This document shows positions 2,664-56,927 of a stretch of DNA of 64,000 bases, piece by piece. The translations under genes were made by a program, and so were the position numbers. Origin of the DNA: Minisyncoccota bacterium (GTDB taxonomy: Bacteria > Patescibacteriota > Minisyncoccia > Phycocordibacterales > UBA9973); the NCBI GenBank assembly GCA_041659205.1, contig JBAZYS010000002.1:1627-65626 (forward strand), in the 5' to 3' direction. Below the pieces are notes generated by a model. That model saw nothing but the letters and a program-made list of their open reading frames with translations. It ran no database searches and was not told the DNA's origin. The stretch's first letter is position 1; every line of letters begins with the position of its first letter.

Positions 2664-2746
2664 AACTTTTGGAGGGGGTTTTGAGGCTGGCGAGTCGAAA
2701 ACTTCAGGGTTTTTTAAGCTTCAAAAAATCCGTACCCGAAAAAAGT
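2664..2746 (+). repeat. Structured intergenic element, copy 1 of the 85-nt family
   Basis: AACTTTTGGAGGGGGTTTTGAG-[GGCTGGCGAGTC]-GAAAACTTCAG-[GGTTTTTTAAGCTTCAAAAAATCC]-GTACCCGAAAAAAGTT; shares its conserved single-stranded blocks and covarying stems with the six other copies. Confidence 0.7.
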
Positions 2747-2773
2747 TGATATTTCAAATAAAAAAAACTACTC

Positions 2774-4255
2774 TTAAAAAGAGTTTTTTATGTTTCTCCA
2801 AAAAAGTTTGTAAATAAAATAGGCGTAAATAATTAACGTGAGGAAAAGTGGAAAATCTGGGAAAGAAAAAGCTGCAAAGGGCAGACGTGAGAAAAAGCTA
2901 ATCACACTGAGCTCGTAATGTAAAAATAAATACGAAACATAACCAAAAGGTATAGCAAATACATAATAAATAAGTCCTGCAAAGCCGGTGATAAAACCAA
3001 GCATCATCGTAAATGGAATAAACGGAAGAATTAAAACATTTGCAGGTAAAGCTACAAGCGATAAATTCCCCATTTTATAAAGAATAAAAGGAAAGACGAA
3101 AACATAAGCAGCAGAGGTGACAGAAACAATATCTCGTAATTGGAAACGCTCAGGTACCCACATAAAATATTTCTCAATTCTTGGGGCGAGGAATATCACA
3201 GCAACTGTCGCGATAAAGGAAAGCTGAAAAGATACATCATACACAAGCAAAAAAGGGTTAAGAACAATCATAGATACACCAGCAAGGATAAGAGCCCGCG
3301 CAACATCATAATTTCTACCAGTCGCGCGGGCAATAAGCGCAAGCGTTGCCATTGTCCCCGCCCGAATAGCTGTAGAGCTTCCCCCAGTCATTAAAATAAA
3401 CAATATAATTGCTAAAATACCCATTCCAATACTAAAATTTAATGAAACGAAAGATATTCGAGCAAATAATTTCATAAACCATTCAGCAACAATCGTCACA
3501 TTATATCCAGACAAAGCAACGATATGTATCGTTCCAGTATTTACAAAACTTTGTCTCAGGGACTGATCGAAGGAAGACTTTTCCCCTAGGATAAGCCCAC
3601 CCATAAGCAAACTCTCGGGTCCCGTTATAGCCAAATTCATTTTCTCTAAAAACTTTTCTTTAGCAAAAAACAAAGCACCTTGAATTTTATTGCCATTCCC
3701 CCGAGAAACAATCTCAACTTTGGGATAACTCATCACGTATAAAATTCCATCTTTGCGAAGGTAATTTATATAATCAAACTCTTTACCAGTATCTGTAATA
3801 AAATTCTCTGGCTTTTTTAAAACACCTGTAAAATTTATCTCATCTCCATATTTGTAACTTTCATCCAAACTAGTTGATAACAAAATCTCAGTTTTTACGA
3901 AGGGCCGACCTTCGTAAGCTACTTCTACAGTTAATTGCTGATTGTTTTCTTTAATACTTGGCTCATCTACAATCTCTCCTCTTAAAGCAACTTTTTGCCC
4001 AACATGGGACTCAAAAACCGCTGGGCTCTCAACATCCACCATATTAAATCGAAAAATTCCTAAACAAAAAGTTAAAATAAAAATAGAAATTAATATTCCC
4101 CAATTATTTTTCGAAATGAGAGTAAAAAACAAGAGCAAGGCTAAGCAAATTATGAGAAGTAAAACAACAAAATATAAATTTACAAATAAAAAAGAGCGTA
4201 TTAACACTCCCAATAAAAACCCAAAACAAATTGTATAAAAAACTTTATCCCGCAT
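2774..4255 (-). CDS. comEC: ComEC/Rec2-like competence membrane protein; membrane channel part only
   Basis: 493 aa polytopic membrane protein with a competence-domain-like core and a long extracytoplasmic N-terminal segment. The MBL-domain half is a separate gene at 978-1862. Confidence 0.6.
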   Translation of the reverse strand: MRDKVFYTICFGFLLGVLIRSFLFVNLYFVVLLLIICLALLLFFTLISKNNWGILISIFILTFCLGIFRFNMVDVESPAVFESHVGQKVALRGEIVDEPSIKENNQQLTVEVAYEGRPFVKTEILLSTSLDESYKYGDEINFTGVLKKPENFITDTGKEFDYINYLRKDGILYVMSYPKVEIVSRGNGNKIQGALFFAKEKFLEKMNLAITGPESLLMGGLILGEKSSFDQSLRQSFVNTGTIHIVALSGYNVTIVAEWFMKLFARISFVSLNFSIGMGILAIILFILMTGGSSTAIRAGTMATLALIARATGRNYDVARALILAGVSMIVLNPFLLVYDVSFQLSFIATVAVIFLAPRIEKYFMWVPERFQLRDIVSVTSAAYVFVFPFILYKMGNLSLVALPANVLILPFIPFTMMLGFITGFAGLIYYVFAIPFGYVSYLFLHYELSVISFFSRLPFAAFSFPDFPLFLTLIIYAYFIYKLFWRNIKNSF

Positions 4256-4829
4256 TTAAAACCTCATTAATTTTCTTAATTACTTCAGGTGCATTAACGT
4301 CTTCTAACTCCATATAAAAACCTTCTTTATTTTCAGCATATTCAACCTTTTTAAAACCAAACGATTCGGCAATGCTAATCGATGTTGCATTAGTAGCTTT
4401 TACCCCAAGCATAACTTTTTTCCCTCCTCGCCTTTGTATCTCTTCTAAACGTGTTGCAAGTATTTTTTTTCCGACTCCTCCTCGAGAATCGGGTTTTACA
4501 TACCCAGAATAAATGTACCAATCCCCCTTTTCCTCTCTTCTCTTTGCAAGACCTATTCCAATAGGCTTAGAATCACTCCAAGCCAATACACCAAATGCAC
4601 TATCCCCAGATAATTTTTCTTTCCATTCATTCTCACTCTCAGCTTCCTCCTCTTTAATTATTTCTTCCCTTCCTTCTCTTGTAATTCCAAACATTTCTGC
4701 ATCATCACCTTTACACATTATGACTCTCAACTCTTTACAGACCATCCAATCATCTGACTTAGCTATTTCTACTCTTACCTCCAACTTTTCTTGGTTAGAT
4801 TGTTTATTTTTAAAAGGATTCTCTGCCAT
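4245..4829 (-). CDS. GNAT family N-acetyltransferase
   Basis: 194 aa; the C-terminal half has an acetyl-CoA-binding-like RRGGKKVMLGV motif followed by a GNAT beta-strand pattern. Confidence 0.5.
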   Translation of the reverse strand: MAENPFKNKQSNQEKLEVRVEIAKSDDWMVCKELRVIMCKGDDAEMFGITREGREEIIKEEEAESENEWKEKLSGDSAFGVLAWSDSKPIGIGLAKRREEKGDWYIYSGYVKPDSRGGVGKKILATRLEEIQRRGGKKVMLGVKATNATSISIAESFGFKKVEYAENKEGFYMELEDVNAPEVIKKINEVLNAG

Positions 4830-4833
4830 AGAT

Positions 4834-5319
4834 TTATTTTTTATTTTTAAGCTCTACTGGATCATCGTCGGCAAAACTGGTGGCGATAATGTCTGCTCGT
4901 TCATTGTATTTGTCTCCGTTGTGACCTTTTACATAAGTCCATTTGGGTTTAAATTCTTCCGTAAGGGTGAAAAGCTCTTCCCAAAGTTCTTTATTCATAA
5001 CAGGTTTCTTGGCAGCATTGCGCCAATTATTTCTTTGCCAATTAAAAATCCATTCAGTGATTCCCAAAATTACATATTTTGAATCTGAAACAATCTCTAT
5101 GTGTGCGTTTATTTTGCCTGCCTGCGCAGACAGGTGTTTCTTGAGATATTTTAAGGCTCCTATTGGTGCAGAGAGTTCCATTTGATTATTCGTAGCATGA
5201 CATTCTCTTCCTCCAATTTCGAAATGTTCTTTACCATAAAGAAATACAGCGCCCCATCCAGCAGGCCCTGGATTACCCTTTGCCGCACCATCGGTATAGA
5301 TTTGGATTTTGTGCTCCAT
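4834..5319 (-). CDS. rnhA: Ribonuclease HI
   Basis: MEHKIQIYTDGAAKGNPGPAGWG...TNNQMEL...VSDSKYV...KGHNGDKYNERAD: RNase H catalytic DEDD pattern. Confidence 0.8.
   Translation of the reverse strand: MEHKIQIYTDGAAKGNPGPAGWGAVFLYGKEHFEIGGRECHATNNQMELSAPIGALKYLKKHLSAQAGKINAHIEIVSDSKYVILGITEWIFNWQRNNWRNAAKKPVMNKELWEELFTLTEEFKPKWTYVKGHNGDKYNERADIIATSFADDDPVELKNKK
5117..5134. repeat. GC-rich palindrome CCTGCCTGCGCAGACAGG, a member of a dispersed family, lying inside rnhA
   Basis: Near-perfect 18 bp palindrome in an AT-rich gene. It encodes SAQAG in frame. Related copies are at 36735-36754, 58288-58305, 2603-2616 and 55033-55046. Confidence 0.6.
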
Positions 5320-5321
5320 AT

Positions 5322-7055
5322 TTATAGTATATCAACTATTCTTAATCTTAGCTCTTCCCTGCCTCGAAACCTTGATAAATCAAAAGTGGTTAATAAATTT
5401 ACATTAATACCTTCAGCTAAAGTCTTTCCAAAAGAATCATGATTAGAAAAAAAAGAAATTGCCGTGGCTTTATGCTTATTTATATCTGAAAATTGAATTT
5501 CCAAATGCTCCCCAGATCCATTTTTACCAAACTTTTTTATTTTCTCAATTTTCACATTATCAAAAAGAAAAACGGGTTTCGAATTCCCGAGGCCAAAAGG
5601 AGCAAGCTTTTCTATTTCTCGCCAATTTTTCATATTTACGATACTTAAATCAGACTTCACGTCATAAGTTATTTCATCTTTTATAATATCCCTTTTCACT
5701 TTATGATAAGAAAGAGACAAGGCTTCTTCTAAGAAATGAATCTTCTCATTGTGCACAGTAAAACCTCCTGCAAGCTCATGTCCACCGAAATCGATAAATG
5801 ATTCAGAAGTTTCTGTCATTAGTTCTACGACTGACACAGAGCCATTACTACGGCAAGAACCCTTGATACAATCATTTTCGTCCTTTCCCCAAACAAAAAC
5901 GGGTTTCTTGTATTCATCAGAAATTTCCCCCGCCACTAAGCCTAAAATACCGACTCGCCAGCTTGGGTTACCTATTACTATCACTTCCTTCATTTCCCTC
6001 TCTTCAAATTTTTTATTCACTTCACGCATAATACTCTTCACAATGGTTTTTCTGTCGTCATTTATTTTTGATAAATGATCTGCGAGTATTCCAGCCTCTA
6101 CGTCATCATTCGTAGAAAGGAGTTCATAAGCCCGCATCGGGTCATCCATTCGAGATGCGGCATTCAAGCGCGGAGCAATCATAAAACCAATGTCATCCTC
6201 TGCTAAATATTTCTGCTCAATTTTCATTTTCGCAAGAAGTTTCTGCAATCCTGGGCGTGGAGACTTTCGTAAAACTTTCATCCCGAAATAAACCATCGCC
6301 CTATTTTCACCCGTGAGTGGAACCATATCAGAAAGCGTGGCAAGTCCTGCCATGTCGAGCATCCATTTTTCCTGCCCATCTTTTATTTTGAAATACTCTC
6401 CATACTTTTTTATAAAACCTTGTGCAAGTTTAAAAGCGACACCTGCCCCACAGAGCATCTTTTCACTATATTCATCTACTTTTGGATTCAAAATCGCATA
6501 AGCCCGAGGTAAAACTGCATGGGGAATGTGGTGATCAGTAATTATTACATCAATACCATCAACTTCTGCTTGAGCTACTTCTTCCACTGCCGTAATACCC
6601 AAATCAATAGTTATTAATAATTTCACCCCGTTTTTTGCAAACTGTTTTATCGCATCTAAATTTAGTCCATACCCTTCAGAGTTTCTCTGAGGAATATAAA
6701 CCTCATAATTTTTATATTTCAATAACTTAAACAAATCATTTAAAATAACCGCTCCAGGAATACCATCACAATCATAGTCAGCATAGATAACTATCTTCTC
6801 CTTTGCTTCCATTGCTTCAAATATTCGCACACAAGCGCGCTCCATATCCTTCATTTGGAAGGGGTCATTGAAATCTCTTGCATAGTCTGGGTTCAAAAAA
6901 ATCTCAGCATCTGCCGAGTTAGTAATGCCTCTTTTTTCTAACAATATCCGTAATAATTCCCCATACTTTTGCATGAATTGAATTTTAACATAAATAGAGT
7001 ACAATATAGAAAGTTTTTTGAAATATGAATTTTGAAGGGGTTTCGAGCCCGACAA
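5322..7055 (-). CDS. recJ: Single-stranded-DNA-specific exonuclease RecJ; the true start is possibly the internal Met near 6973
   Basis: DHH family motifs (DYDCDGIPGA, DHHIPH) and a DHHA1-like C-terminal region. Confidence 0.8.
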   Translation of the reverse strand: MSGSKPLQNSYFKKLSILYSIYVKIQFMQKYGELLRILLEKRGITNSADAEIFLNPDYARDFNDPFQMKDMERACVRIFEAMEAKEKIVIYADYDCDGIPGAVILNDLFKLLKYKNYEVYIPQRNSEGYGLNLDAIKQFAKNGVKLLITIDLGITAVEEVAQAEVDGIDVIITDHHIPHAVLPRAYAILNPKVDEYSEKMLCGAGVAFKLAQGFIKKYGEYFKIKDGQEKWMLDMAGLATLSDMVPLTGENRAMVYFGMKVLRKSPRPGLQKLLAKMKIEQKYLAEDDIGFMIAPRLNAASRMDDPMRAYELLSTNDDVEAGILADHLSKINDDRKTIVKSIMREVNKKFEEREMKEVIVIGNPSWRVGILGLVAGEISDEYKKPVFVWGKDENDCIKGSCRSNGSVSVVELMTETSESFIDFGGHELAGGFTVHNEKIHFLEEALSLSYHKVKRDIIKDEITYDVKSDLSIVNMKNWREIEKLAPFGLGNSKPVFLFDNVKIEKIKKFGKNGSGEHLEIQFSDINKHKATAISFFSNHDSFGKTLAEGINVNLLTTFDLSRFRGREELRLRIVDIL

Positions 7056-7107
7056 GGCGAGAACTTCAGGACCTTTTACGCTTCAAAAGGTCCGTACCGA
7101 AAAAATT
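7028..7107 (+). repeat. Structured intergenic element, copy 2
   Basis: AATTTTGAAGGGGGTTTCGAG-[CCCGACAAGGC]-GAGAACTTCAG-[GACCTTTTACGCTTCAAAAGGTCC]-GTACCGAAAAAATT. Its P3 stem carries compensatory CC/GG changes relative to other copies. Confidence 0.7.
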
Positions 7108-7126
7108 TATATTTAAAAAACTTTAT

Positions 7127-7519
7127 ATGAACGATTGTATTTTTTGTAAAATTTCAAACGGAGAAATTCCAAAAGAGTTTGTTTATCAAGATGAAAAATT
7201 TTTGGTTTTTCTTGATATCAAACCAGTCACGAACGGGCATCTAATAATAATTCCCCGAAAACATATTGTCTGGATGCAAGAAGCAGAGGATGAAACAATT
7301 TCTGAAATATTTAAACTAACAAAAAAACTAATGCTTGTGTTAAAAAAGGCATTTACTTGTGACTATGTGCAAGAAACTGTAGTGGGCAATGAGGTCCCAC
7401 ATTTTCATATCCATTTAATACCAAGATACAAGGATGACAATTTACCCAATCTCCCAACAAAAACTTACAAAGAAAAAGAAGAAAAAGAGGTTCTAGAAAA
7501 AATTACCCAAGTGCTTTAA
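7127..7519 (+). CDS. HIT-family (histidine triad) hydrolase
   Basis: The C-terminus has the HFHIHLIP histidine triad. The ORF-track start at 7025 would read through repeat copy 2, so the Met at 7127 (MNDCIFCKISNGEIPKEF) is preferred. Confidence 0.75.
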   Translation: MNDCIFCKISNGEIPKEFVYQDEKFLVFLDIKPVTNGHLIIIPRKHIVWMQEAEDETISEIFKLTKKLMLVLKKAFTCDYVQETVVGNEVPHFHIHLIPRYKDDNLPNLPTKTYKEKEEKEVLEKITQVL

Positions 7520-9379: not shown

Positions 9380-9382
9380 AAG

Positions 9383-11116: not shown

Positions 11117-11118
11117 AG

Positions 11119-12602: not shown

Positions 12603-12606
12603 AATT

Positions 12607-15610: not shown

Positions 15611-15621
15611 TTATAGTATAA

Positions 15622-15662
15622 CAAAAAATCCCCTCAATATAAATACTGATGGGGATTTTTTG
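15622..15662. terminator. Hairpin ATCCCC-N17-GGGGAT flanked by A/T runs on both sides; bidirectional rho-independent terminator
   Basis: Inverted repeat with poly-T on both strands, 3' of the 892 aa gene. It is part of a 199 bp block that is identical at 18404-18602. Confidence 0.6.
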
Positions 15663-15678
15663 TTAATAAAATATAATA

Positions 15679-18357: not shown

Positions 18358-18409
18358 ATTATACTACAAAATAAAAAATGTGTGAGGAAGTTATTCACAA
18401 AAACAAAAA

Positions 18410-18438
18410 ATCCCCTCAATATAAATACTGATGGGGAT
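18410..18438. terminator. Duplicate of the 15628-15656 terminator hairpin
   Basis: Identical sequence, located 3' of the 1017 aa paralog. Confidence 0.6.
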
Positions 18439-18460
18439 TTTTTGTTAATAAAATATAATA

Positions 18461-34670: not shown

Positions 34671-36200
34671 ATGAGTATAACAATAGTAATTACAATCGGA
34701 GTCGTAGCACTCCTTTTGGGTGTGGGGATAGGATACTATCTTCGCCTAATCATTGCATTAGGGAAAAGAAGATCTATAGAAATAGACATCAAGCAAATGA
34801 TGGTCGGTGCAAAAGAAGAAGCGCAAAAGATTACCGATGAAGCAAAGAAGAAGTCGGAAGAACAACTCGCATATCTAAAAGAAGAAGAGAAAAAGAAAGA
34901 AAATGAGTTTAAAGAAACAGAAAAAAGGCTCATCAAGAAAGACGAATTTCTAGACTCGCGTCAGGTTGAAGTAAATAAAGAAGTCGAAGGGATTAAAATC
35001 AAAGTAGAAGAAATCAAAAAAATCCAAGAAAAAGTATCTAAAATAGAAGCAGAAAAAATAATTGAACTTGAAAGAGTTGCAAAGTTAACAGAAATTGAGG
35101 CAAAAGATGAACTCTTGAAAGACGTTGAGAAAAAATACGAAGAAGATATATTAATCAGAATTCAAAAACTAGAAAATTCTAATGAGGAAAAATTAGACCG
35201 AAGAGCAAAAGACATTTTAGCTACTTCTATTCAGCGTCTCGCTTCCAGTACTGCCTCAGAACTAATGACGACCGTCGTCTCTATTCCAAACAATGAAATA
35301 AAGGGAAAGATAATAGGAAAAGAAGGCCGAAATATCCGAGCATTCGAGAGAGCTTCCGGAGTTGAACTCATCGTGGACGATACACCTGGCTCAATCGTTA
35401 TTTCTTCATTCGACCCTATTAGAAGACAAGTTGCTAGACTCGCACTTGAAAACTTAATCTTAGATGGACGCATCCAACCAGCTAAAATAGAAGAACTCGT
35501 AGATAAAGCAAAAGAGGAAATCAATAAAATCATCAAAGAAAAAGGTGAACAAGCAGTCTATGAATGTGGAATATTCAACTTTGATCCACGCATCATCGCA
35601 ATCGTTGGAAGATTATATTTCCGAACAAGTTATGGACAAAATGTTCTTCAGCACTCTATAGAAATGGCCCACATAGCTGGAATGCTCGCAGAAGAACTCG
35701 GTGCAGACGTTGCTATCGCAAAAGCCGGAGCACTTGTCCATGACATCGGTAAAGCTCTCGATCATGAAGTTCAGGGAACCCACATTGAGATAGGAATGCG
35801 CATCTTGCAGAAGTTCGGTGCTGATGAACGCATCATAACTGCAATGAAAAGCCACCATGAGGACTATCCTTATGAAACTATTGAATCAATCATCGTCCAG
35901 ACAGCTGACGCCATCTCTGGTGGCCGCCCTGGTGCACGTCGTGACTCAGTGGAAAACTACCTAAAGAGACTTCAGGAACTTGAAGCCCTTGTAAACGGCT
36001 TCCCTGCTGTCGAGAAATCATATGCTTTACAAGCTGGCCGAGAAATCCGCATATTTGTTACTCCAGAAAAGATTTCTGATGCCGAAGCAAAACTTATGGC
36101 TCGTGATATTGCTATTAAAATAGAACAAGAACTCAAATACCCTGGAGAAATCAAGGTCACAATGATTCGTGAAACAAGAATCATTGAATATGCTCGCTAG
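34671..36200 (+). CDS. rny: Ribonuclease Y
   Basis: N-terminal TM helix, coiled-coil, a KH domain (IGKEGRNIRAFE) and an HD domain (HSIEMAHIAG...LVHDIGK). Confidence 0.85.
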   Translation: MSITIVITIGVVALLLGVGIGYYLRLIIALGKRRSIEIDIKQMMVGAKEEAQKITDEAKKKSEEQLAYLKEEEKKKENEFKETEKRLIKKDEFLDSRQVEVNKEVEGIKIKVEEIKKIQEKVSKIEAEKIIELERVAKLTEIEAKDELLKDVEKKYEEDILIRIQKLENSNEEKLDRRAKDILATSIQRLASSTASELMTTVVSIPNNEIKGKIIGKEGRNIRAFERASGVELIVDDTPGSIVISSFDPIRRQVARLALENLILDGRIQPAKIEELVDKAKEEINKIIKEKGEQAVYECGIFNFDPRIIAIVGRLYFRTSYGQNVLQHSIEMAHIAGMLAEELGADVAIAKAGALVHDIGKALDHEVQGTHIEIGMRILQKFGADERIITAMKSHHEDYPYETIESIIVQTADAISGGRPGARRDSVENYLKRLQELEALVNGFPAVEKSYALQAGREIRIFVTPEKISDAEAKLMARDIAIKIEQELKYPGEIKVTMIRETRIIEYAR

Positions 36201-36216
36201 AAAATATTATAAATAC

Positions 36217-36300
36217 AACTTTTAAAGGGGGTTTCGAGGCTGACGAGCCGAGAACTTCAGGATTTCTTAAGCTTCAAGAAATCCGTACCCTTTAAAAGTT
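36217..36300 (+). repeat. Structured intergenic element, copy 3
   Basis: AACTTTTAAAGGGGGTTTCGAG-[GCTGACGAGCC]-GAGAACTTCAG-[GATTTCTTAAGCTTCAAGAAATC]-CGTACCCTTTAAAAGTT. The outer stem covaries (TTTAAAGGG/CCCTTTAAA). Confidence 0.7.
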
Positions 36301-36456
36301 AGTATTTATTATAAATTTTCTAAACTATACAAACACTTGCCTTAAAAAACCCTTGATATATAATGTATGGGTATCAATAATAAGGGTTAAATGTCACGCC
36401 AAAGGCGGACAGGGTCGAAGGATTATAAAATTATAAAAATAACTTATAAAAAACAC

Positions 36457-36754: not shown

Positions 36755-36769
36755 CTCGAGATAAAAATA

Positions 36770-36805
36770 AAAACACCCCAAACGAAAGTAAGGGGTGTTT
36801 TTATT
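36770..36805 (+). terminator. Rho-independent terminator of hup
   Basis: AAACACCCC-AAACGAAAGTAA-GGGGTGTTTTT. Confidence 0.7.
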
Positions 36806-36830
36806 TTTATCTAGATTTTTTGGAATATAT

Positions 36831-36912
36831 CTTTTGAAGGGGGTTTCGAGGCTGACGAGCCGAGAACTTCAGAATTTTTTAAGCTTCAAAAAATTCGTGC
36901 CCGAAAAAAGTT
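36831..36912 (+). repeat. Structured intergenic element, copy 4
   Basis: CTTTTGAAGGGGGTTTCGAG-[GCTGACGAGCC]-GAGAACTTCAG-[AATTTTTTAAGCTTCAAAAAATT]-CGTGCCCGAAAAAAGTT. Confidence 0.7.
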
Positions 36913-36926
36913 ATATTCCAAAAAAT

Positions 36927-37493
36927 CTAATATTTTCGAATCACCGCTTTCAAAACTGCATTTATGTTTAAAGAGTGCACAGGATAGATTGGTTTATAGT
37001 TTTTATTCGCTGGCTCGAGCCATACTTTTGCCCCAACTTTACGAAAGTATTTCATCGTAAACTCCCCATCCACTTCAGCGATGACTATCTGCATATCTTT
37101 CGCAGCAGTCGCTTTCTCTACGAGCACCATATCTCCCTTTTCAATGTGCGCGTCGATCATAGAGTCACCGTCGACTTCAAGCATATATGTCAGTGATTTA
37201 TTTTTTATTAAAAGGTCATCTAGCTTTATTGTATCTACCAATTCCTCTTCCACTGTGGCTGGAAATCCTGCGGTAACAAAACCAAGCATTGGCACTTCTC
37301 CGAAGGTTTCAGCTGGAATAAGTCTACCCAAATGATCTTTCCCTACGAGCCCTGCCTCTATTAATTTCTCCACAACTTTAAATACAGCATTTTTTGATTT
37401 GAAATTAAAGAGCTTCAGCATTTCAGAATATGTCGGCATCCTTTTATTGTCTCCGTAGAATGACTCTAATTTTAGCTGATAGGTATTCTTCAT
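36927..37493 (-). CDS. lexA: LexA repressor (S24 peptidase)
   Basis: N-terminal winged HTH; C-terminal S24 motifs (VDGDSMIDAHIEKGDMVLV ... KYFRK). Confidence 0.85.
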   Translation of the reverse strand: MKNTYQLKLESFYGDNKRMPTYSEMLKLFNFKSKNAVFKVVEKLIEAGLVGKDHLGRLIPAETFGEVPMLGFVTAGFPATVEEELVDTIKLDDLLIKNKSLTYMLEVDGDSMIDAHIEKGDMVLVEKATAAKDMQIVIAEVDGEFTMKYFRKVGAKVWLEPANKNYKPIYPVHSLNINAVLKAVIRKY

Positions 37494-39857: not shown

Positions 39858-39909
39858 ATAATAGCATGTTAATTTTTTGTAGCAAGCCCGAACAAATTAC
39901 CTATTTTTT

Positions 39910-40329: not shown

Positions 40330-40353
40330 AATTATTTTTTTTTATTAAAATTT

Positions 40354-40800: not shown

Positions 40801-40847
40801 GAACCAATTATATCAGTTTTATTCTTTTTTTGTGGTAAAATACCAAC

Positions 40848-42107: not shown

Positions 42108-42111
42108 TTTT

Positions 42112-42636: not shown

Positions 42637-42658
42637 TTTTTTGTAGTATAATATTTTT

Positions 42659-43723: not shown

Positions 43724-43752
43724 AAATTAATGCTATAATTAACATCATAAAT

Positions 43753-44865: not shown

Positions 44866-44899
44866 AATCATGCTATAATCTCTATCTGTCATAAACTGT

Positions 44900-45817: not shown

Positions 45818-45836
45818 AGCGTATAATTTATATAAT

Positions 45837-46754: not shown

Positions 46755-46775
46755 AGAAGACTCGTATTTCACTCA

Positions 46776-47204: not shown

Positions 47205-48844
47205 TATGTAATTTATTTCCTGAACCTACATACTTTTTTTTCTCCTCAGCTGTGCCAGCATTACTTTACTACGCACAAATACCTGCCACAGTGATTGCAC
47301 TCCTTCTAAGCTTCTATGTATTTTGGAAAGGTAGAAAACTTTTACTCAATAGACTTCTTTTTTTAATCTCTATATTTTTTTCACTTTGGACACTTTCAAC
47401 CTTAATAGCTTGGACTAATATTCACAGTGACTTTATAATATTTACTTGGTCTTTTTTCAGTTTAATATTAGGCCTCATTTCCATCTTCTGCATTTATTTT
47501 ATTTATGTATTTTTATGGAAAAACGATATTTCAGTACGTCTCAAGGTAATTTTTATTACGCTACTTGCACCTCTCCTTATCCTCGCACCTACTACTTTAA
47601 ACCTTAGTGGTTTCAACCTAACAAATTGTGACGCTTTTGATTTCGAATGGCTCCCATTCAAACTCTATGGTACGTCACTCGGAGTACTAGCAATTATATG
47701 GATTCTCGTTCTTCTCATTAAGGCATATCGTGTAGCAAAGCCTGATTTTAAAAAACAAATTGCTCTCATGGGAACAGGTATTGAATTATTTCTCTTCTCT
47801 TTTTTTGGAATGGAATTCATCGCAACTTACCTTGCAAGAATTGGTATCTTCCCAGATTCCCAGCTCGAGCTATATGGGATGTTCGGAATGGTAATATTTA
47901 TGATATATATAAGCGTTCTCATGGTCCGCTTTAAAGCTTTTAACGTAAAACTTCTTGCCACCCAGGCATTGGTATGGGGACTTGCAGCATTAGTAGGTTC
48001 ACAATTCTTCTTTATTAAAGCAACTGTAAACTTTGTCCTTAATGGATTTGGATTTCTTACCTCTATAATTTTGGGACAATATTTGATTAAATCTGTTAAA
48101 AAAGAAATAGAGCAAAAAGAAAAATTAGCTAGACTAAATATAGATCTTCAGCTTTCAATTAAACAAAGGGAAAGCCTTGTCCACCTCGTTACTCACAAGG
48201 TTAAAGGTTCATTTACTCGCACGAAATTTCTTTTTGCTGGAATACTAGATGGCACCTTTGGACCAATAACTCCTGAAATTAAAAAAAGAGCAGAGCAGGG
48301 TCTTGAATTTGATAATGGTGGAATCCGCACGGTTGACTTGGTTTTAAATGTCGCCAATTTGCAAAATGGAGTCATTAAATATGATATGCAAAATTTTGAT
48401 TTTAAAGAGATGACTCTTGAAACAGTAGATGAAAAAAGGGTTGGGGCTGAAGCAAAAGGATTAAAAATAGAAACAAAAATTAATAATGACACTTATAACA
48501 TTAAAGGTGACACTTTCTGGCTCAAAGAAGTAATAAACAATTTGCTTGAAAATTCTATTAAATATACAAAAGAAGGATTGATAACAGTCTCACTCGAAAA
48601 GAAAGAAAACAAAATATTGTTAAGTGTCAAAGACACAGGATTTGGCATCACTAAAGAAGATAAAGAACATTTATTTACTGAAGGTGGACGAGGCAAAGAC
48701 TCTGTAAAAATAAATGTGGACAGTACAGGCTATGGACTCTATACAGTAAAATTAATCGTAGAAGCCCATAAAGGCCGCGTCTGGGCAGAGTCTGAAGGTG
48801 CGGACAAAGGTTCTACTTTCTTTGTAGAATTACCAACAACATAA
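47201..48844 (+). CDS. Sensor histidine kinase (orphan, polytopic N-terminus)
   Basis: Six to seven TM helices, a coiled-coil, a HisKA H-box (HLVTHKVKGS) and HATPase_c G-boxes (DTGFGI, GYGLY). Confidence 0.75.
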   Translation: MICNLFPEPTYFFFSSAVPALLYYAQIPATVIALLLSFYVFWKGRKLLLNRLLFLISIFFSLWTLSTLIAWTNIHSDFIIFTWSFFSLILGLISIFCIYFIYVFLWKNDISVRLKVIFITLLAPLLILAPTTLNLSGFNLTNCDAFDFEWLPFKLYGTSLGVLAIIWILVLLIKAYRVAKPDFKKQIALMGTGIELFLFSFFGMEFIATYLARIGIFPDSQLELYGMFGMVIFMIYISVLMVRFKAFNVKLLATQALVWGLAALVGSQFFFIKATVNFVLNGFGFLTSIILGQYLIKSVKKEIEQKEKLARLNIDLQLSIKQRESLVHLVTHKVKGSFTRTKFLFAGILDGTFGPITPEIKKRAEQGLEFDNGGIRTVDLVLNVANLQNGVIKYDMQNFDFKEMTLETVDEKRVGAEAKGLKIETKINNDTYNIKGDTFWLKEVINNLLENSIKYTKEGLITVSLEKKENKILLSVKDTGFGITKEDKEHLFTEGGRGKDSVKINVDSTGYGLYTVKLIVEAHKGRVWAESEGADKGSTFFVELPTT

Positions 48845-48860
48845 AAACGGTAATATAATG

Positions 48861-48936
48861 TTTTTTAGGGGTTTTGAGCACGACGGTGCGAAAACTTCAG
48901 GATTTTTTAAGCTTCAAAAAATCTGTACCTAAAAAA
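48861..48936 (+). repeat. Structured intergenic element, copy 5
   Basis: TTTTTTAGGGGTTTTGAG-[CACGACGGTGC]-GAAAACTTCAG-[GATTTTTTAAGCTTCAAAAAATC]-TGTACCTAAAAAA. The outer stem covaries (TTTTAGGG/ACCTAAAA). Confidence 0.7.
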
Positions 48937-48958
48937 TATTATATTACGGTTTTTACTT

Positions 48959-49867: not shown

Positions 49868-49870
49868 ATT

Positions 49871-52048: not shown

Positions 52049-52147
52049 AGATAGAGAACACTACTATATGTCCGAACGCGAACTGATTAACTACTAATAT
52101 CTAATAAACTATGATTATATTAGCACTTTTACATCAAAAAGCAAAAA

Positions 52148-52657: not shown

Positions 52658-52783
52658 ACATTAATTATAGCAAAGAATACTTATAAAAACGACTACGGAA
52701 GCTGACGAGCTGAGTCCTGAGCAAAAATTCAACAGAATTTTATGTGTGCGTTTTTAAAAATATTTTTTGCTAGAATTACAAAT

Positions 52784-53047
52784 TTACGCAAGATCCATTT
52801 TCTTCATCAAAGCAGCATAACGAGGCTTACTTTTTCGTTCCAAATACTTCAAATGAGTTCGGCGGTCGGCTACCATTTTGATAAGCCCACGACGAGAATG
52901 ATTATCTTTTTTATGCTTTTTAAGGTGTTTTGCAAGAGCGTCAATCTGAGTAGACAAAACGGCAACCTGAACTTCCGGAGAGCCAGTATCTGTCTCATGA
53001 ATTTGATTTTTCTTTATAACTGCTTGTTTTTTCTTTGTTGCTAACAT
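52784..53047 (-). CDS. rpsO: 30S ribosomal protein S15
   Basis: TGSPEVQVAVLSTQIDALAKHLKKHKKDNHSRRGLIKMVADRRTHLKYL. Confidence 0.8.
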   Translation of the reverse strand: MLATKKKQAVIKKNQIHETDTGSPEVQVAVLSTQIDALAKHLKKHKKDNHSRRGLIKMVADRRTHLKYLERKSKPRYAALMKKMDLA

Positions 53048-53123
53048 GTTTATTATATTAGCATAAACCCTATAAATTGCAAGTTCCCTTAGAAAATATT
53101 GTGCGACATGCTAAAATATATCT

Positions 53124-54080
53124 ATGGCATCCGTACATGAACTTAAAAATCAATTTCTGGAATATATAGAGATAGAAAAAGGCCGAGCGATAAGAACAGT
53201 TGAAAACTACGATCATTATTTAACTGTTTTTTTAAACCAAACAAAAATCACTGACCCGAAAGATATAACAGATGAAAAAGTCCGAGATTTTCGTATCTGG
53301 CTCAACCGGCAAACAACAGGCAACAACAGAGCTACTGGCGGGACAGTAAAAAAGAAAACACAAAATTATTATTTAATAGCCCTCCGTACTTTTCTTAAAT
53401 TTCTAACAAGGAGAAATATCACATCCCTTCCCTCAGACCACATAGAGCTAGCAAAAGTCGGTGAAAGACAAATCGATGTTATATCCCAAGAAGAATTGCG
53501 CAGACTCTTGCGCGCACCAGACAATGAAAAAAATTTAGAAAAAAAATATCGAGACAAAGCAATCATGGAAATGCTTTTCTCGACTGGCCTGCGTGTTTCA
53601 GAACTTTGCTCACTAAAAAATGATCTCGACCTTCAGCTAGATGAATTTTCTATTCGTGGGAAAGGGGGTAAGGTGCGTGTCGTTTTTTTATCTGATGAAG
53701 CAAAGGCTGCCGTAAAAAATTATTTAGCAAATCGCAAAGATATGTCTGATGCCCTTTTTGTAAAAGTTAATGAAGAAACATCAGCAGGAACAAATTTAAA
53801 TAAAAAGAAAGGAAAAAACTCTACAGAAAATGATGGCCTCACTCGTCGCTCCATAGAAAGAATTGTAAAAAGATATGCCACAATCGCAGGCATATCAAAA
53901 AAGGTTACACCACATGTCATTCGTCATGTTTTCGCCACAGACTTGCTTTCCAATGGAGCAGACATCCGCTCGGTGCAGGCCATGCTCGGCCATTCCAATA
54001 TTGCGACAACCCAAATTTATACACACGTTACTGACAAGCATTTGCGTGATATTCACAAAAAATTTCATAACAAACAATAA
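53124..54080 (+). CDS. Tyrosine site-specific recombinase (XerC/XerD-like)
   Basis: C-terminal catalytic region HVIRHVFATDLL...GHSNIATTQIYTHV; R-H-R-Y residue context. Confidence 0.75.
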   Translation: MASVHELKNQFLEYIEIEKGRAIRTVENYDHYLTVFLNQTKITDPKDITDEKVRDFRIWLNRQTTGNNRATGGTVKKKTQNYYLIALRTFLKFLTRRNITSLPSDHIELAKVGERQIDVISQEELRRLLRAPDNEKNLEKKYRDKAIMEMLFSTGLRVSELCSLKNDLDLQLDEFSIRGKGGKVRVVFLSDEAKAAVKNYLANRKDMSDALFVKVNEETSAGTNLNKKKGKNSTENDGLTRRSIERIVKRYATIAGISKKVTPHVIRHVFATDLLSNGADIRSVQAMLGHSNIATTQIYTHVTDKHLRDIHKKFHNKQ

Positions 54081-54094
54081 AACCTTTAGAACAT

Positions 54095-54176
54095 AACTTT
54101 TGCAGGGGTTTTGAGCTCGGCGGAGCGAAAACTTCAGAATTTTTTAAGCTTCAAAAAATTCGTACCGAAAAAAGTT
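54095..54176 (+). repeat. Structured intergenic element, copy 6
   Basis: AACTTTTGCAGGGGTTTTGAG-[CTCGGCGGAGC]-GAAAACTTCAG-[AATTTTTTAAGCTTCAAAAAATT]-CGTACCGAAAAAAGTT. Confidence 0.7.
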
Positions 54177-54222
54177 TATGTTCTAAGAGTTTCACAATTT
54201 ACTTTGTGCTACAATTATTAAA

Positions 54223-54993
54223 ATGAAAATCATAAGCTGGAACACAAATGGACTACGGGCAACAGCAAAACAAGGCTTTTTTGTTCCCCTTTTCAAAGAT
54301 GAAAAACCTAATATTTTATGCCTTCAAGAAACAAAAGCTGAACCAGATCAGCTTCCAGAAGATGTCCGCAATGTAAAAGGTTATTATTCATATTTTTCAC
54401 ATCCCAAAATTAAAAAAGGCTACAGTGGAGTAGCTATTTATACTAAAGAAAAACCAAAAGAAGTTTTCTATGGAATGGGCATAAAAAAATTGGATGATGA
54501 AGGCAGGCTTCTCGGTGTAAAATTAAAAAATTATACAGTGATAACTGGGTATTTCCCTAACGGGGGGCAGGGACCCCATAGACTGAAATACAAATTAGAA
54601 TTTTACGATGCCTTTTTAAAATTTATATTAAAACTTCGCAAAAATGGTGAAAATGTCATTTTTTGTGGGGACGTAAATACCGCCCATGAAGCCATCGACC
54701 TCGCTCGCCCTAAAGCAAATGAAGAAAATACAGGATTCTTGCCAATAGAGCGTGCCTGGATTAGTAAAGTAATTGAAAATAACTTTTTAGATATTTATAG
54801 AAAATTCTATCCTGGAAAAGTCGGCGCCTATACTTATTGGGATATAAAAACACGAGCCCGAGACAGAAATGTCGGATGGCGTCTAGACTATTTTTTTGCA
54901 GATGCAAAAATCGTTCCAAAAATAAAAAATGCTGGAATGTTATCAGACTATTACGGCTCAGACCACTGCCCTATTTGGATACAACTTAATTAA
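54223..54993 (+). CDS. xth: Exodeoxyribonuclease III
   Basis: MKIISWNTNGLRA ... LQETK ... SDHCPI: AP endonuclease family. Confidence 0.85.
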   Translation: MKIISWNTNGLRATAKQGFFVPLFKDEKPNILCLQETKAEPDQLPEDVRNVKGYYSYFSHPKIKKGYSGVAIYTKEKPKEVFYGMGIKKLDDEGRLLGVKLKNYTVITGYFPNGGQGPHRLKYKLEFYDAFLKFILKLRKNGENVIFCGDVNTAHEAIDLARPKANEENTGFLPIERAWISKVIENNFLDIYRKFYPGKVGAYTYWDIKTRARDRNVGWRLDYFFADAKIVPKIKNAGMLSDYYGSDHCPIWIQLN

Positions 54994-55053
54994 AACTCGT
55001 TGCAGGTGTAGTTTTTATGAACCCTTGCGCAGGCGGGTAGCCGAGCAGAGCAA
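54993..55053 (-). repeat. Inverted copy of the 2589-2650 element, 3' of murI
   Basis: TTGCGCAGGCGGGTAGCCGAGC is the exact reverse complement of 2595-2616, with similar flanks. Confidence 0.6.
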
Positions 55054-55106
55054 TTTTTTAGTAAAAAAATATGCGTGGTGAATAAAAACTATACCAAAAA
55101 AGAGTT

Positions 55107-55901
55107 TTATATTTCAATTAATCCTGGTTTAATCTTTGCTCCAAACCATTTAGAAGTAAGTATTTCTACGGTTTTTGTCTTGTCTGTAACGAGAATTTTA
55201 ACACTTCCCTTTTTTGAAAGCTTTTGAAATATTTCTTCATGTTTTTTAAGATATTCCTTGAGTTTTTTGGGTATTATTTCGTCCTGAGAAATTATTTTAA
55301 TATTTTTAGGTAAAAATTTTCTTATTTGTCCTTTAAATATAGGATAGTGCGTGCAACCAAGAATTAAAGCATCTAATTTTTTATTTAAAAAAGGTTGCAA
55401 ATATTTTTTGATAAATGGCAGAGCATTTTTTATTTCTCCTTCTTCTGCGAGAGCCACCAGGAGTGGCGCAGCATTTTGGAAAATTATTACTTTTTTGTTT
55501 ATTTTTTTAATTTCTTGCGGAAAAGTATTGGAGTCAACAGTTCCCTTTGTCCCTAAGACCCCTACTCTCTTAAATTTAGCAGCTTCTTCTGCAGCCGGGA
55601 TCAAAACTCCCAATACTTTTCTCCCAGGGAAATTCTTAGGTAAATATTCCTGTTGTATTTTTCGCAAAGCCCGAGCTGAAGATGTATTACAGGCAACAAT
55701 AACAATAGCGCAATTTTCTTTACGGAAAAGATAGTCCACACATTCTCGCGTAAATTCATACACAGCTTCATGCGAACGGTTTCCATAAGGCACCCTTTTG
55801 GTATCACCTAAATACACATAATCGTATTCTGGCATTACTTTTACTATTGATTTCGCAATCATAAGCCCTCCTAAACCTGAATCAAAAATTCCTATCTTCA
55901 T
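55107..55901 (-). CDS. murI: Glutamate racemase
   Basis: IGIFDSGLGGL...VACNTSS...GCTHYP. Confidence 0.85.
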   Translation of the reverse strand: MKIGIFDSGLGGLMIAKSIVKVMPEYDYVYLGDTKRVPYGNRSHEAVYEFTRECVDYLFRKENCAIVIVACNTSSARALRKIQQEYLPKNFPGRKVLGVLIPAAEEAAKFKRVGVLGTKGTVDSNTFPQEIKKINKKVIIFQNAAPLLVALAEEGEIKNALPFIKKYLQPFLNKKLDALILGCTHYPIFKGQIRKFLPKNIKIISQDEIIPKKLKEYLKKHEEIFQKLSKKGSVKILVTDKTKTVEILTSKWFGAKIKPGLIEI

Positions 55902-56002
55902 ATTTTTATAATAACATAATCTGCAAAATGAAAAAGTTACATTTTTAAAGCCTTGCGCAAGAGCTTAGAAAATAAAAATGGTAATCCATTTATTATTTTC
56001 TT

Positions 56003-56037
56003 GAGCGACGAGCAGTTCGCTGGCGAAGCTTCGCCAG
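56003..56037 (+). repeat. Degenerate variant of the 85-nt element (GAGCGACGAGCAG...CTGGCGAAGCTTCGCCAG)
   Basis: Keeps the GAG-hairpin block and the AAGCTTC loop, but the P3 stem is GC-rich (CTGGCG/CGCCAG). Confidence 0.35.
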
Positions 56038-56053
56038 ATAGATTGCTTTCAAA

Positions 56054-56758
56054 ATGCAACTTTTTCATTTTGTAGATTTATGGTATATTTTATACATGAG
56101 CCACGCAAGATTAGAACAATTATCCGACGGAATTTTCGCAATAGTAATGACCGTGTTAGTTTTTCAAATTAGACTACCTGCCATCTGGGGCCCGATAGAC
56201 AATATGGGTCTTTGGTTCGAAATCAAAAAACTATTCCCTCTTTTACTTAGTTACGTTTTGGGCTTTTCTTTACTCTTCACATATTGGAGAGCGCACCATT
56301 TCTTTGTCTCTATTTACGCAAAAAATGTAGACTCAAGGCTCACAAACATAAATGCTTTATTTTTTATGCTTATAAGCCTAGTGCCCTTCTCCGCTAGTGT
56401 CCTCGGTAGCTTCAGTAGCAACGAACTTTCTATAATACTTTTCGGCATACATATTACCCTAATCGGCCTTACTTTGTATTGGATGAGAAGATATGTACTT
56501 TTCTCTGAACATATAAAAAACCCTGAAATAACAAAAAGAGAAATCCGAGGCAGTACTATCCGCACCCTAATCCCAGTTGTCTTTGCATTAATCGCTATGC
56601 CGCTTTCTTTTTTAAGCATAAAACTTTCTTTATTTTTATTTACCCTCGCTGTAATCTTCAACCTTTCTTCTTATAGCACGAAACTTTTTGAAAATATTCT
56701 AAAGACTCTTCACCATATGTTTTTCGGTGAAGACAAAAAAGGCCACTTCGCAGATTAA
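56054..56758 (+). CDS. DUF1211 (TMEM175-like) membrane protein
   Basis: Signature RLEQLSDGIFAIVMTVLVFQI, a second-half repeat, and six TM helices. Confidence 0.6.
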   Translation: MQLFHFVDLWYILYMSHARLEQLSDGIFAIVMTVLVFQIRLPAIWGPIDNMGLWFEIKKLFPLLLSYVLGFSLLFTYWRAHHFFVSIYAKNVDSRLTNINALFFMLISLVPFSASVLGSFSSNELSIILFGIHITLIGLTLYWMRRYVLFSEHIKNPEITKREIRGSTIRTLIPVVFALIAMPLSFLSIKLSLFLFTLAVIFNLSSYSTKLFENILKTLHHMFFGEDKKGHFAD

Positions 56759-56774
56759 AAATTCCCCAAAATAC

Positions 56775-56856
56775 TTTTTGTAGGGGTTTCGAGAGCGACG
56801 GCTCGAGAATTTCAGGATTTCTTAAGCTTCAAGAAATCCGTACCATAGAAAAGTTG
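56775..56856 (+). repeat. Structured intergenic element, copy 7, nested in an extra 11 bp inverted repeat ATTCCCCAAAA/TTTTGGGGAAT at 56762-56870
   Basis: CTTTTTGTAGGGGTTTCGAG-[AGCGACGGCTC]-GAGAATTTCAG-[GATTTCTTAAGCTTCAAGAAATC]-CGTACCATAGAAAAG. Confidence 0.7.
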
Positions 56857-56927
56857 TTTTGGGGAATTTTTACTTCATCTCACAAGTATTTTTCTACTGA
56901 AAAATCTCGCGAGCCCTCCTCGCCTCG

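Follow-up and report, generated by a model that had tools for sequence, protein, structure and literature searches.

Foldback interspersed repeats with a conserved three-way-junction cap in Parcubacteria-group genomes: a probable superfamily of mobile non-coding DNA

Among bacterial small repeats, several classes, including REP/BIME, have described properties that allow comparison with the element reported here (PMC3184786). Pneumococcal SPRITE/BOX sequences are small non-coding interspersed repeats that form stable hairpins (PMC3184786). The present element is alike in these respects, and has the same location bias and a partial terminator look. However, it has no sequence relation to SPRITE/BOX, its host clade is the CPR, its arms are copy-specific and capped by a conserved three-way junction, and a U-tract occurs in less than half of its copies. 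ERIC, Correia (nemis) and other MITEs are imperfect palindromes of ~100-160 bp, situated in intergenic transcribed regions and present or absent between strains (PMC3184786). The element here matches them in size, foldback shape, polymorphism and orientation behavior. ERIC is conserved across genera, and MITEs of the ERIC/Correia type occur in either orientation relative to genes. In classical MITEs, however, the terminal inverted repeats are conserved and the target duplication is fixed (TA in both ERIC and Correia), whereas MITE-like defined ends and 7-bp duplications are found here only in a long, GAATTAC-ended subfamily, ordinary copies having neither.

High copy number, extragenic palindromes at gene 3′ ends, a lack of target duplication and a strand or orientation bias are common to this element and to REP/BIME with RAYT, whose roles include mRNA 3′-end protection and termination. 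REPs, on the other hand, are GC-rich single hairpins of 20-40 nt with a conserved GTAG-type head, whereas the element here is 115-125 nt long, A/T-rich and branched, and about 900 kb of sequence around its copies revealed no RAYT gene. Integron attC sites are conserved in structure and largely free in sequence, lie at ORF 3′ ends and fold strand-specifically in a manner linked to replication, features that are shared here. Unlike attC, the elements are dispersed among housekeeping genes rather than gathered in cassette arrays beside an integrase, the RYYYAAC/GTTRRRY boxes are not conserved, and whereas the centre of attC is variable, here a 62-nt centre is conserved.

The window, the whole 64,000-nt stretch of DNA that was analysed, contains seven full copies (type A), all at the predicted positions and on the + strand. 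Each of two independent degenerate patterns recovered 7/7 copies on the + strand and none on the - strand, with 0 expected from shuffles, and an unfiltered covariance-model run scored the seven at 90-105 bits, with no comparable match on the - strand. With four divergent relatives, of which one is on the - strand, the window has 11 superfamily members in total:

2644..2769, + strand: type A, 90.2 bits; core 2675-2736, arms 2644-2674 and 2737-2769; in the spacer of convergent sodA and comEC, with a type B copy adjoining.
7005..7129, + strand: type A, 94.1 bits; core 7037-7098; between divergent recJ (-) and HIT-family (+) genes.
36198..36322, + strand: type A, 102.3 bits; core 36228-36289; 5′ arm begins at the rny stop codon (TAG), hup downstream.
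36808..36932, + strand: type A, 97.4 bits; core 36840-36901; after the canonical hup terminator (36758-36816), with the stop codon of lexA (- strand; CTA, 36927-36929) inside the 3′ arm.
48842..48955, + strand: type A, 105.4 bits; core 48868-48929; forms the entire spacer of the convergent histidine-kinase gene and next - strand gene, the arms including both stop codons.
54080..54192, + strand: type A, 93.6 bits; core 54105-54166; between an xer-type recombinase gene and an endonuclease/exonuclease/phosphatase-family gene, both + strand.
56756..56872, + strand: type A, 90.1 bits; core 56783-56844; 5′ arm begins at the stop codon of a TMEM175/DUF1211-like gene; arms AAAAATTCCCCAAAA/TTTTGGGGAATTTTT resemble a split terminator.
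54991..55109, + strand: type B, 24.5 bits, z -5.95; between convergent genes; type A architecture with another core (TTGCGCAGGCGGGTAGCCGAGC...AGTA-loop hairpin...GCGTG) inside a shell module AAACTCGTTGCAG.../...AAAAAGAGTTT.
2532..2650, - strand: type B, 19 bits, z -7.79; directly adjoins the type A copy 2644-2769.
52662..52778, + strand: type C, 24.3 bits, z -5.22; P2 type A-like (AGCTGACGAGCT), P3 type B-like.
~55934-56056, + strand: expanded type B; between divergent genes; TTGCGCAAGAG, a long P2 arm, GAGCGACGAGCA and a P3 with GAAGCTTC apex.

The original prediction placed every copy on the + strand, which is true of the seven type A copies and untrue of the family, since the two type B copies (54990-55110 on +, 2530-2650 on -) had been overlooked. 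Its two degenerate relatives, at 52690-52740 and 56003-56037, are indeed kin, but of other subtypes, namely type C and expanded type B. Similarly, six of seven copies were said to lie immediately 3′ of + strand genes. Only the four noted at 36217, 48861, 54095 and 56775 start right at such a gene's stop codon; those at 2664, 36831 and 7028 do not, and at 2664 another element lies between the copy and sodA, the copy itself bordering comEC (- strand).

The unit is longer than the ~85 nt first proposed, as the outer stem runs on into copy-specific sequence (median 28 nt per arm) to give a full hairpin of 115-125 nt, in which a 62-nt core caps a stem of ~28 bp. The proximal third of this stem is family-specific (AATATAACTTTT / AAAAGTTATATT), while its distal part differs in nearly every copy. 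A median of 29 flanking positions are paired, and each copy's own 5′ and 3′ flanks pair far better than flanks swapped between copies (p = 1e-21). The apical module is a three-way junction composed of a short GC hairpin (P2) with flanking tandem G.A, an A/T-rich hairpin of variable length (P3) and near-invariant joining strands. The predicted three-stem architecture and its compensatory variants are visible in the alignment and are likewise seen across 107 non-redundant copies drawn from the window and from other genomes. In this sample, 85.6% of cells are paired, compared to 36-62% in slid controls, and the observed covariation was reached by 0/500 shuffles. P2 undergoes GC/CG and UA/CG swaps at 99% pairing, and the proposed Y-R covariation (Y24-R42) is borne out by 71 CG and 33 UA pairs with 3 exceptions. 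Core identity is 0.88 in orthologous and non-orthologous pairs alike, with 21 pattern-fixed core positions conserved by ascertainment, although the proteins encoded alongside share no more than 50-90% identity between these genomes. Both the tandem G.A pairs and the conservation of unpaired nucleotides are features typical of a functional RNA or a protein-binding site. Furthermore, the modules recombine: cores of type A, B and C occur with an optional outer "shell" that has a conserved 6x6 internal loop and is common to different types, and one A/B hybrid was seen.

The same core was found in 108 genuine loci among 115 pattern matches, essentially all in Parcubacteria-group MAGs. This previously undescribed family is thus widespread in Parcubacteria-group (CPR) genomes. 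With 7 + 4 copies in the window and more than 100 loci elsewhere, the predicted abundant, structured intergenic family is genuine. Copies collect where compact genomes tolerate extra DNA, at gene 3′ ends (129 adjoining 3′ ends compared to 75 5′ ends) and above all in convergent spacers (26 convergent contexts compared to 4 divergent). They often stand beside or in place of ordinary terminators; canonical terminators adjoin copies in L037, L024 and the window. Enrichment of U-tracts at the base of the hairpin is threefold (31% compared to 9%). However, 55% of copies lack one, so a terminator role is not general.

Comparison of orthologous sites shows that copies are gained, flipped, partly deleted (leaving solo arms or core-less hairpins) and swapped for other subtypes. 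Truly empty sites exist, as 12-35 nt gaps or overlapping genes; the sites orthologous to 48842-48955 are empty, with gaps of 35 nt in L019 and 12 nt in L043. Around hup, in assemblies encoding an identical HU protein, the copy 36808-36932 is missing in L120, L121 and L122 and survives as a core-less remnant in L119, and at the 36198-36322 site L119 carries an additional hairpin, L120 only the 3′ arm, and L122/L123 another core in place of the original. In different genomes, a single orthologous site may carry type A, B/D, C or a plain terminator. The site of 2644-2769 is occupied in L080 and L108, and that of type B 54990-55110 holds a type A copy in L083. In addition, the type C of 52660-52780 recurs in L024 at the rplL/purH site, and the expanded type B has homologues in L003, L007, L008, L042, L091 and L107. 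Altogether, 28 orthologous occupied pairs were found, 20 in the same orientation and 8 in opposite orientation, with opposite core orientations at 5 sites.

The long, GAATTAC-ended copies are the one subfamily to have both terminal inverted repeats and target duplications, the latter of 7 bp: in one MAG, long copies that are almost identical carry 7-bp direct repeats (four 7-mers compared to 0.3 expected). These defined ends and duplications indicate transposase-type insertion. In ordinary copies, target-site duplications do not exceed the control and no terminus is sharp and conserved, so that these copies fall outside the classical MITE definition. No transposase or other recurrent neighbour gene was found in about 900 kb flanking the copies, nor any autonomous element bounded by the same ends.

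These observations probably describe interspersed, non-coding foldback (long-hairpin) repeats that form one superfamily, specific to the Parcubacteria-group CPR and consisting of mobile REP/ERIC/SPRITE-like DNA, not of a strand-specific RNA. In function it would correspond to REP/BIME, ERIC, Correia and the SPRITE/BOX elements of pneumococci. A putative trans-acting enzyme would recognize the conserved apical module and spread the copies as DNA. Single-stranded DNA folded at the replication fork probably takes part in this spreading, since the core is oriented with the replication-type strand asymmetry at a ratio of about 3:1: the top strand lies on the C-rich strand in 36/46 loci (p = 1.6e-4), including 15/20 in convergent contexts. 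Arm complementarity may be upheld by palindrome self-templating, by selection to fold, or by both. Read-through transcription in either orientation would yield a very stable hairpin acting as a transcript-end barrier (terminator or 3′-exonuclease block), a role that would make the element tolerated or mildly useful, but no strand-specific RNA gene. Several findings count against this reading. No linked transposase or autonomous element was found, and ordinary copies lack both target duplications above control and a sharp terminus. Core conservation is far beyond expectation for neutral mobile sequence, and the 28 pairs of occupied orthologous sites, of which 20 agree in orientation, could reflect long-term retention by selection.

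Alternatively, the element could be a cis-acting RNA module that the host selects at the 3′ ends of its transcripts, whether as a structured bidirectional terminator/insulator or as an RNase processing and mRNA-stabilising site, bound by a conserved CPR protein; it would have been copied for its usefulness and would work in either orientation. This possibility, which we regard as rather unlikely, accords with the strong 3′-end and convergent-spacer bias, arms that begin at stop codons, often with A-run/T-run brackets, and orthologous sites that carry either the element or a canonical terminator. The very strongly conserved core, with compensated changes, conserved internal loop and tandem G.A, and the frequent highly expressed neighbours (e.g., rplL, efp, recA, ftsZ, hup and sodA) point the same way. 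However, more than half of the copies have a U-tract on neither side, several adjoin a perfectly good canonical terminator, and some lie in divergent or 5′-leader positions (7005-7129, 55934-56056 and the L019 pnp leader). Moreover, close relatives lack the element at the same site, internal pairs have no G.U excess, and the 62-nt junction is left unexplained, as a simple hairpin would suffice for such a role.

A folded single-stranded DNA site for a recombinase or HUH-type enzyme, as in REP with RAYT, IS200/IS605 ends or integron attC, with the three-way junction as recognition structure and the fork setting orientation, seems improbable. Orientation tracks the replication-type skew even between convergent genes, and all 7 window type A copies lie on one strand, the cumulative skew being monotonic across the window. 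Ordinary copies without target duplication, stems that pair symmetrically on both strands, and conserved structure with free arm sequence as in attC are also in its favor. Nevertheless, no Y1/HUH transposase or integrase is recurrently linked (the xer-type neighbour is a single case), the arms do not conserve the attC R-box consensus, the top strand is the one less exposed in replication, the reverse of IS608-type behavior, and the 7-bp duplications of the long subfamily are typical of DDE transposition.

The original prediction favored a functional RNA over a REP, and a 3′-UTR element on the sense strand. Among 100+ copies in other genomes, however, where the flanking genes are co-directional, the top strand is antisense to them in 35 cases and sense in 11, and no positionally fixed promoter was found. 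Internal pairs have no excess of the G.U type: G.T and A.C mismatches are equally rare there (7 compared to 11), unlike what single-stranded RNA selection would give, and the arms have 83 compared to 70. As DNA, both strands fold almost equally well. Copies thus lie on both strands relative to transcription, one subfamily has terminal inverted repeats with 7-bp duplications, and copies are polymorphic for presence and partial deletion, largely the kinds of observation that the prediction itself had named as contradicting it; its 3′-UTR RNA or ribozyme reading is not supported. A novel top-strand RNA (self-cleaving ribozyme, processing motif or small protein-binding RNA) is very improbable, despite the covarying three-way junction with its near-invariant joining strands, the lack of any Rfam match, ribozyme classes included, by which it would be new, and a hammerhead candidate in the same window, by which small ribozymes do occur in the source genome, given the 3:1 antisense placement, the core flips at orthologous sites, and ribozyme models that all failed to score even with permissive filters. 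Some stem sequences, GGATTTTTT/AAAAAATCC among them, themselves barely vary, an unusual trait in ribozyme helices, and the better RNA folding of the top strand in 106/107 cores stems from two or three junction-adjacent G.T positions only.

The repeat in the window is a branched foldback of 115-125 nt and about 37% GC, in which the conserved three-way junction of 62 nt forms the tip of a longer hairpin, so that the unit of about 85 nt given in the original prediction proved too short. An alignment of the seven copies recognized there (type A) spans about 120 nt, and 52 of its columns are invariant. When the two halves of the core were searched with separate, independent degenerate patterns, each pattern matched exactly these seven, all on the + strand, where dinucleotide shuffles expect none. 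A covariance model trained on 107 non-redundant copies and run over the window without filters likewise returned the seven at 90-105 bits, with nothing comparable on the - strand. The stem runs far past the conserved part into arms (median length 28 nt) that differ in almost every copy and keep their complementarity: the 45-nt flanks have a median of 29 paired positions, and pairing of a 5' flank is far better with the 3' flank of the same copy than with that of another (p = 1e-21). Four relatives with divergent cores bring the total to 11 copies in 64 kb, in addition to more than 100 loci in other genomes:

54991-55109, + strand: type B copy
2532-2650, - strand: type B copy, touching the type A copy at 2644-2769
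52662-52778, + strand: type C copy
about 55934-56056, + strand: expanded type B copy

The last two had been described as degenerate relatives; their relationship is real, but they belong to other subtypes, type C and an expanded type B. Similarly, the statement that all copies lie on the + strand holds for the seven type A copies and not for the type B copy at 2532-2650.

Minimum-free-energy folds return the predicted three-way junction, with z-scores from -2.6 to -8.2. In the alignment of 107 sequences, an explicit structure of outer stem, P2a/P2 and P3 pairs 85.6% of cells, compared with 36-62% in slid controls whose 3' partners were moved by 1-3 columns, and the observed covariation was reached by none of 500 column shuffles. 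The three variable pairs of P2 show GC/CG, CG/GC and UA/CG swaps at 99% pairing, P3 covaries at four positions, and 71 copies have CG at the Y-R pair already noted, 33 have UA and in 3 the pair is broken. A K-turn at YGAG/CGAR is ruled out, as Y24-R42 covaries as a pair and leaves only a 1-nt bulge. The invariance of 21 core positions is by construction, because the pattern used in the genome scan held them fixed; P3 and the GTACC joiner are nearly invariant although they lie outside these positions. Parts of the fold recur in different combinations. Type C consists of the P2 of type A and the P3 of type B, the copy at L076:407 in another genome has an exact type A P2 within type B junctions, and an outer shell whose 6x6 internal loop is conserved (AAACTC-GTYGNA...NNRGAA-GAGTTT) is found around type A or around type B, depending on the genome.

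Scanning one genome per species with a sequence pattern yielded at least 115 loci. Among the 115 matches listed, about 108 are genuine and seven are chance matches in high-GC genomes from outside the CPR. All genuine loci among them belong to MAGs of the Parcubacteria group within Patescibacteria (Nomura-, Yonath-, Yanofsky- and Adlerbacteria, 'Paceibacterota'); the candidate phyla of this group that have the element number at least five. Proteins encoded in the window itself share 70-85% identity with those at Nomurabacteria/Paceibacterota loci. Some MAGs with the element are labelled 'uncultured Candidatus Saccharibacteria' (L008, L012, L013, L033, L036, L040, L053, L055, L063, L065, L075, L078, L087, L092, L096 and L115). 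These are probably mislabelled, since their flanking proteins, where comparable, are 76-90% identical to those of Nomurabacteria/Paceibacterota MAGs. The element was not found in IMG/VR viral contigs, where three pattern matches were not confirmed by the covariance model, arguing against phage carriage. A full-text literature search found no published description of such an element in CPR, and exact-protein look-ups of SodA, LexA, the TMEM175-like protein and Xer for further strain comparisons returned nothing on record.

Orthologous sites occur empty, occupied, reduced to a solo arm or replaced. Synteny analysis of about 830 flanking ORFs revealed some that are truly empty, with gaps of 12-35 nt or overlapping genes, and the whole hairpin with its arms is therefore gained or lost as a unit. 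The occupant of a single orthologous site can be type A, type B/D, type C, type A with a canonical terminator, or plain terminator hairpins only. Strain-level change is seen among five assemblies encoding an identical 90-aa HU protein: in three of them the copy at 36808-36932, between hup and lexA, is missing and the hup terminator adjoins the lexA stop codon. At the same site, locus L119 keeps two arm motifs and has lost the core; between rny and hup it carries a type A copy and an extra hairpin. The rny-hup site of L120 retains only a 3' arm, which fits a deletion between A-runs. The family-specific AAAGTTATATT in this arm marks it as a deletion remnant, and its reading as virgin target sequence is ruled out. 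In L122 and L123 the 5' arm at the rny-hup site is kept, and after it the type A core and 3' arm give way to an unrelated palindrome of about 150 nt (CCCACACACCTATCTTGGTAT...ATACCAAGATAGGTGTGCGGG; L122:470-745, L123:270-545), possibly another repeat family.

The MAG MFTH01 contains several almost identical copies of about 165 nt, the product of a recent burst. This long subfamily has defined ends (TGAATTACGAAAC.../...GTTTCGTAATTCA, with the end sequence TGAATTACGAAACTCGTCGA) and is bracketed by 7-bp direct repeats: a script found TAAGTAA, TATACAA and TCTATTT, and inspection by eye ATTTTAC, TTTATCA and TCAAAAC (four 7-mers, where 0.3 would be expected). With X-drop boundaries, direct repeats at the hairpin boundary of ordinary copies do not exceed the control level, so that a general target-site duplication is rejected outside the long subfamily. 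Insertion into the loop of a pre-existing terminator is not general either, because orthologous empty sites lack a palindrome, though the arms at 56756-56872, L039 and L053 look like a split terminator.

In size, non-coding content and copy number (about 100-400 bp, many copies) and in insertion polymorphism between related genomes, the element resembles a MITE. A MITE has conserved terminal inverted repeats that mark its ends. Here the proximal arms are family-specific and their conservation fades outward without a sharp end; defined ends and a fixed-length duplication (7 bp) are confined to the long subfamily, and no cognate autonomous IS with matching ends occurs within the fetched loci. 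REP/BIME sequences are GC-rich imperfect palindromes of 20-40 nt with a conserved head tetranucleotide and a link to RAYT, whereas the element is longer, AT-richer and branched, and no RAYT-like gene was found next to it. Neither a transposase nor any other recurrent neighbour was found among the flanking genes, which are housekeeping genes, and an adjoining partner gene is accordingly rejected. Core identity is 0.88 in orthologous and non-orthologous pairs alike, with flanking proteins only 50-90% identical, and the distal arms of orthologues are barely more similar (0.55) than those of other pairs (0.48-0.51). In orthologous copies such as L026/L042 and L034/L103, differences in the arms are fully compensated. 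The explanation is either strong purifying selection on the tip, for a partner that recognises its sequence as well as its shape, or homogenisation among the copies. A conserved tip on free, copy-specific and compensated arms goes beyond the textbook MITE or REP. The best-supported reading, which we consider fairly probable, is a new superfamily of REP/ERIC/SPRITE-like foldback repeats in the Parcubacteria group, which would be spread at the DNA level by a putative enzyme and would be tolerated, or mildly useful, at transcript ends.

Among the loci listed, 26 copies lie between convergent, 46 between co-directional and 4 between divergent genes, and the adjacent gene ends are 3' in 129 cases and 5' in 75. 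Arms often start exactly at a stop codon (36198, 48842, 56756) or contain one (the lexA stop at 36927-36929), and a canonical terminator stands beside several copies. At least six of eight positions at the hairpin base are T in 31% of copies on the top strand, that is, the strand of the core as originally drawn, and in 32% on the bottom strand, against a background of 9%. Taken together, these features place the element in terminator zones. The 3'-end location and convergent enrichment are those of an intrinsic or SPRITE-like terminator; the hairpin followed by a U-tract is not general, as 55% of copies have no T-tract on either strand. The element may thus be a putative transcript-end barrier, yet not simply the terminator.

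An RNA end-module selected by the host would account for this location, but is unlikely. In co-directional gene pairs among the loci listed, the top strand is antisense in 35 cases and sense in 11, contrary to the predicted strand-specific 3'-UTR RNA on the sense strand. Among 28 orthologous occupied pairs, core orientation is the same in 20 and opposite in 8 (5 sites); downstream of rplL, for example, L037 has the core in sense orientation, whereas L062, L065 and L072 have it in antisense. RNA energies favour folding of the top strand, but this advantage is lost on inspection: 40 of 47 top-strand G.T pairs come from two junction-adjacent positions, and the DNA energies of the two strands are about equal (-25.4 and -23.9 kcal/mol). 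G.U is normally tolerated far more than A.C in selected RNA helices. The remaining core pairs include 7 G.T and 11 A.C, and the arms 83 and 70, respectively. Neither a consistent orientation to transcription nor G.U far above A.C, the marks of a structured cis- or trans-acting RNA, was found. An independently transcribed sRNA is rejected, as neither strand of 98 copies shows a -35/-10 pair whose position is fixed.

Core orientation instead follows replication asymmetry. When the skew of coding strands (+0.092) was separated from the residual strand skew within each locus, the top strand of the core lay on the C-rich strand in 36 of 46 loci (p = 1.6e-4). The same holds for 15 of 20 convergent contexts, where transcription cannot cause the bias because the copies sit between convergent genes. 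The cumulative skew of the window is monotonic, suggesting that it probably lies on a single replichore, and the replication-linked orientation explains why all seven type A copies share one strand. This skew-linked orientation points to a putative single-stranded-DNA step at the fork, in either insertion or loss. More speculatively, and with less likelihood than the RNA end-module, the three-way junction may be an active nucleic-acid module: a small motif of a new kind that cleaves or processes itself, or the fold recognised by the putative enzyme. The element would then be a new CPR-specific class of mobile element. It would insert with no duplication of its target and would generate copy-specific inverted-repeat arms itself, for example through inverted copying of the target flank at the replication fork. 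A recombination site of folded single-stranded DNA would also suit such a step, but is more doubtful still. An integron attC in particular is ruled out, as the arm columns are not conserved to the R''/R' consensus (RYYYAAC / GTTRRRY), and the copies are dispersed among housekeeping genes rather than in a cassette array near intI.

A novel catalytic or protein-binding RNA, in line with the covarying helices and conserved loops, is the least probable and very unlikely. The suggested comparison with Rfam was carried out: types A-C have no gathering-level match in Rfam 15, which includes hammerhead, twister, twister-sister, pistol, hatchet and HDV-like ribozymes, and E-values up to 10 return only generic long-hairpin miRNA models. 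A known RNA family or ribozyme is thereby ruled out. Nor can CUGACGAG...GAAAC be mapped onto a hammerhead, since P2 alternates with GCGCGACGGCGC. The earlier interpretation as a ribozyme or strand-specific 3'-UTR RNA is therefore unsupported by orientation, by G.T relative to A.C, by promoter position and by Rfam, and a functional-RNA call needs more than covarying helices and conserved loops.

The genomes of CPR/Patescibacteria are tiny, come largely from uncultured organisms and are poorly annotated beyond their genes, and a repeat that takes up a large part of their scarce intergenic space has both practical and biological consequences. A covariance model could mask or label it in annotation, and in assembly and binning it is an interspersed repeat. 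In streamlined genomes, it may also account for the way terminator-like hairpins arise, move and disappear. The foldback repeat's invariant branched tip on freely varying arms is unusual among bacterial dispersed repeats, and therefore offers a handle for finding the protein that recognises it.

Other features were observed in the window. A candidate type III hammerhead ribozyme at 61376-61430 (+ strand) has a complete CUGAUGA...GAAA core, stem I UCGAGAU/AUCUCGA and stem II GUCC/GGAC, and scores 37.8 bits against Rfam RF00008 (gathering 48.5; E = 4e-7). Its neighbours are a 212-aa ORF without a Pfam match and a LysM/M23 peptidase gene; a GC hairpin precedes it and a canonical terminator follows. 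The PNPase gene has a leader with about 90 conserved nt (GTTCGCGTTCGGACATATAGTAGTGTTCT...AGAACAATACTGCAGTTCGAACACGA) at 52049-52147 (- strand), common to four genomes (the window, L019, L043 and L060) and without a match in Rfam; the ORF start given as 52048 probably lies too far upstream. L019 has a type A insertion that separates this leader from the start codon. The spacer at 23942-24158, upstream of the gene at 24159, contains two canonical terminators and then a GC-rich structured stretch (GCGTCGCATATTGGCCGCGTCCTAAAGGACTTACGCGGCACGATTCCGCAGAATCGAC...) that may be an unannotated leader, with no gathering-level match in Rfam. Two identical blocks of about 62 nt in two co-directional spacers (15611-15678 and 18400-18460), each consisting of a terminator AAAAAATCCCCTCAATATAAATACTGATGGGGATTTTTT and TGTTAATAAAATATAATATTAAT, look like a duplicated terminator/promoter cassette. 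Just downstream of the last type A copy, at 58550-59710, are four tRNA genes, three of them on the + strand and one on the - strand.
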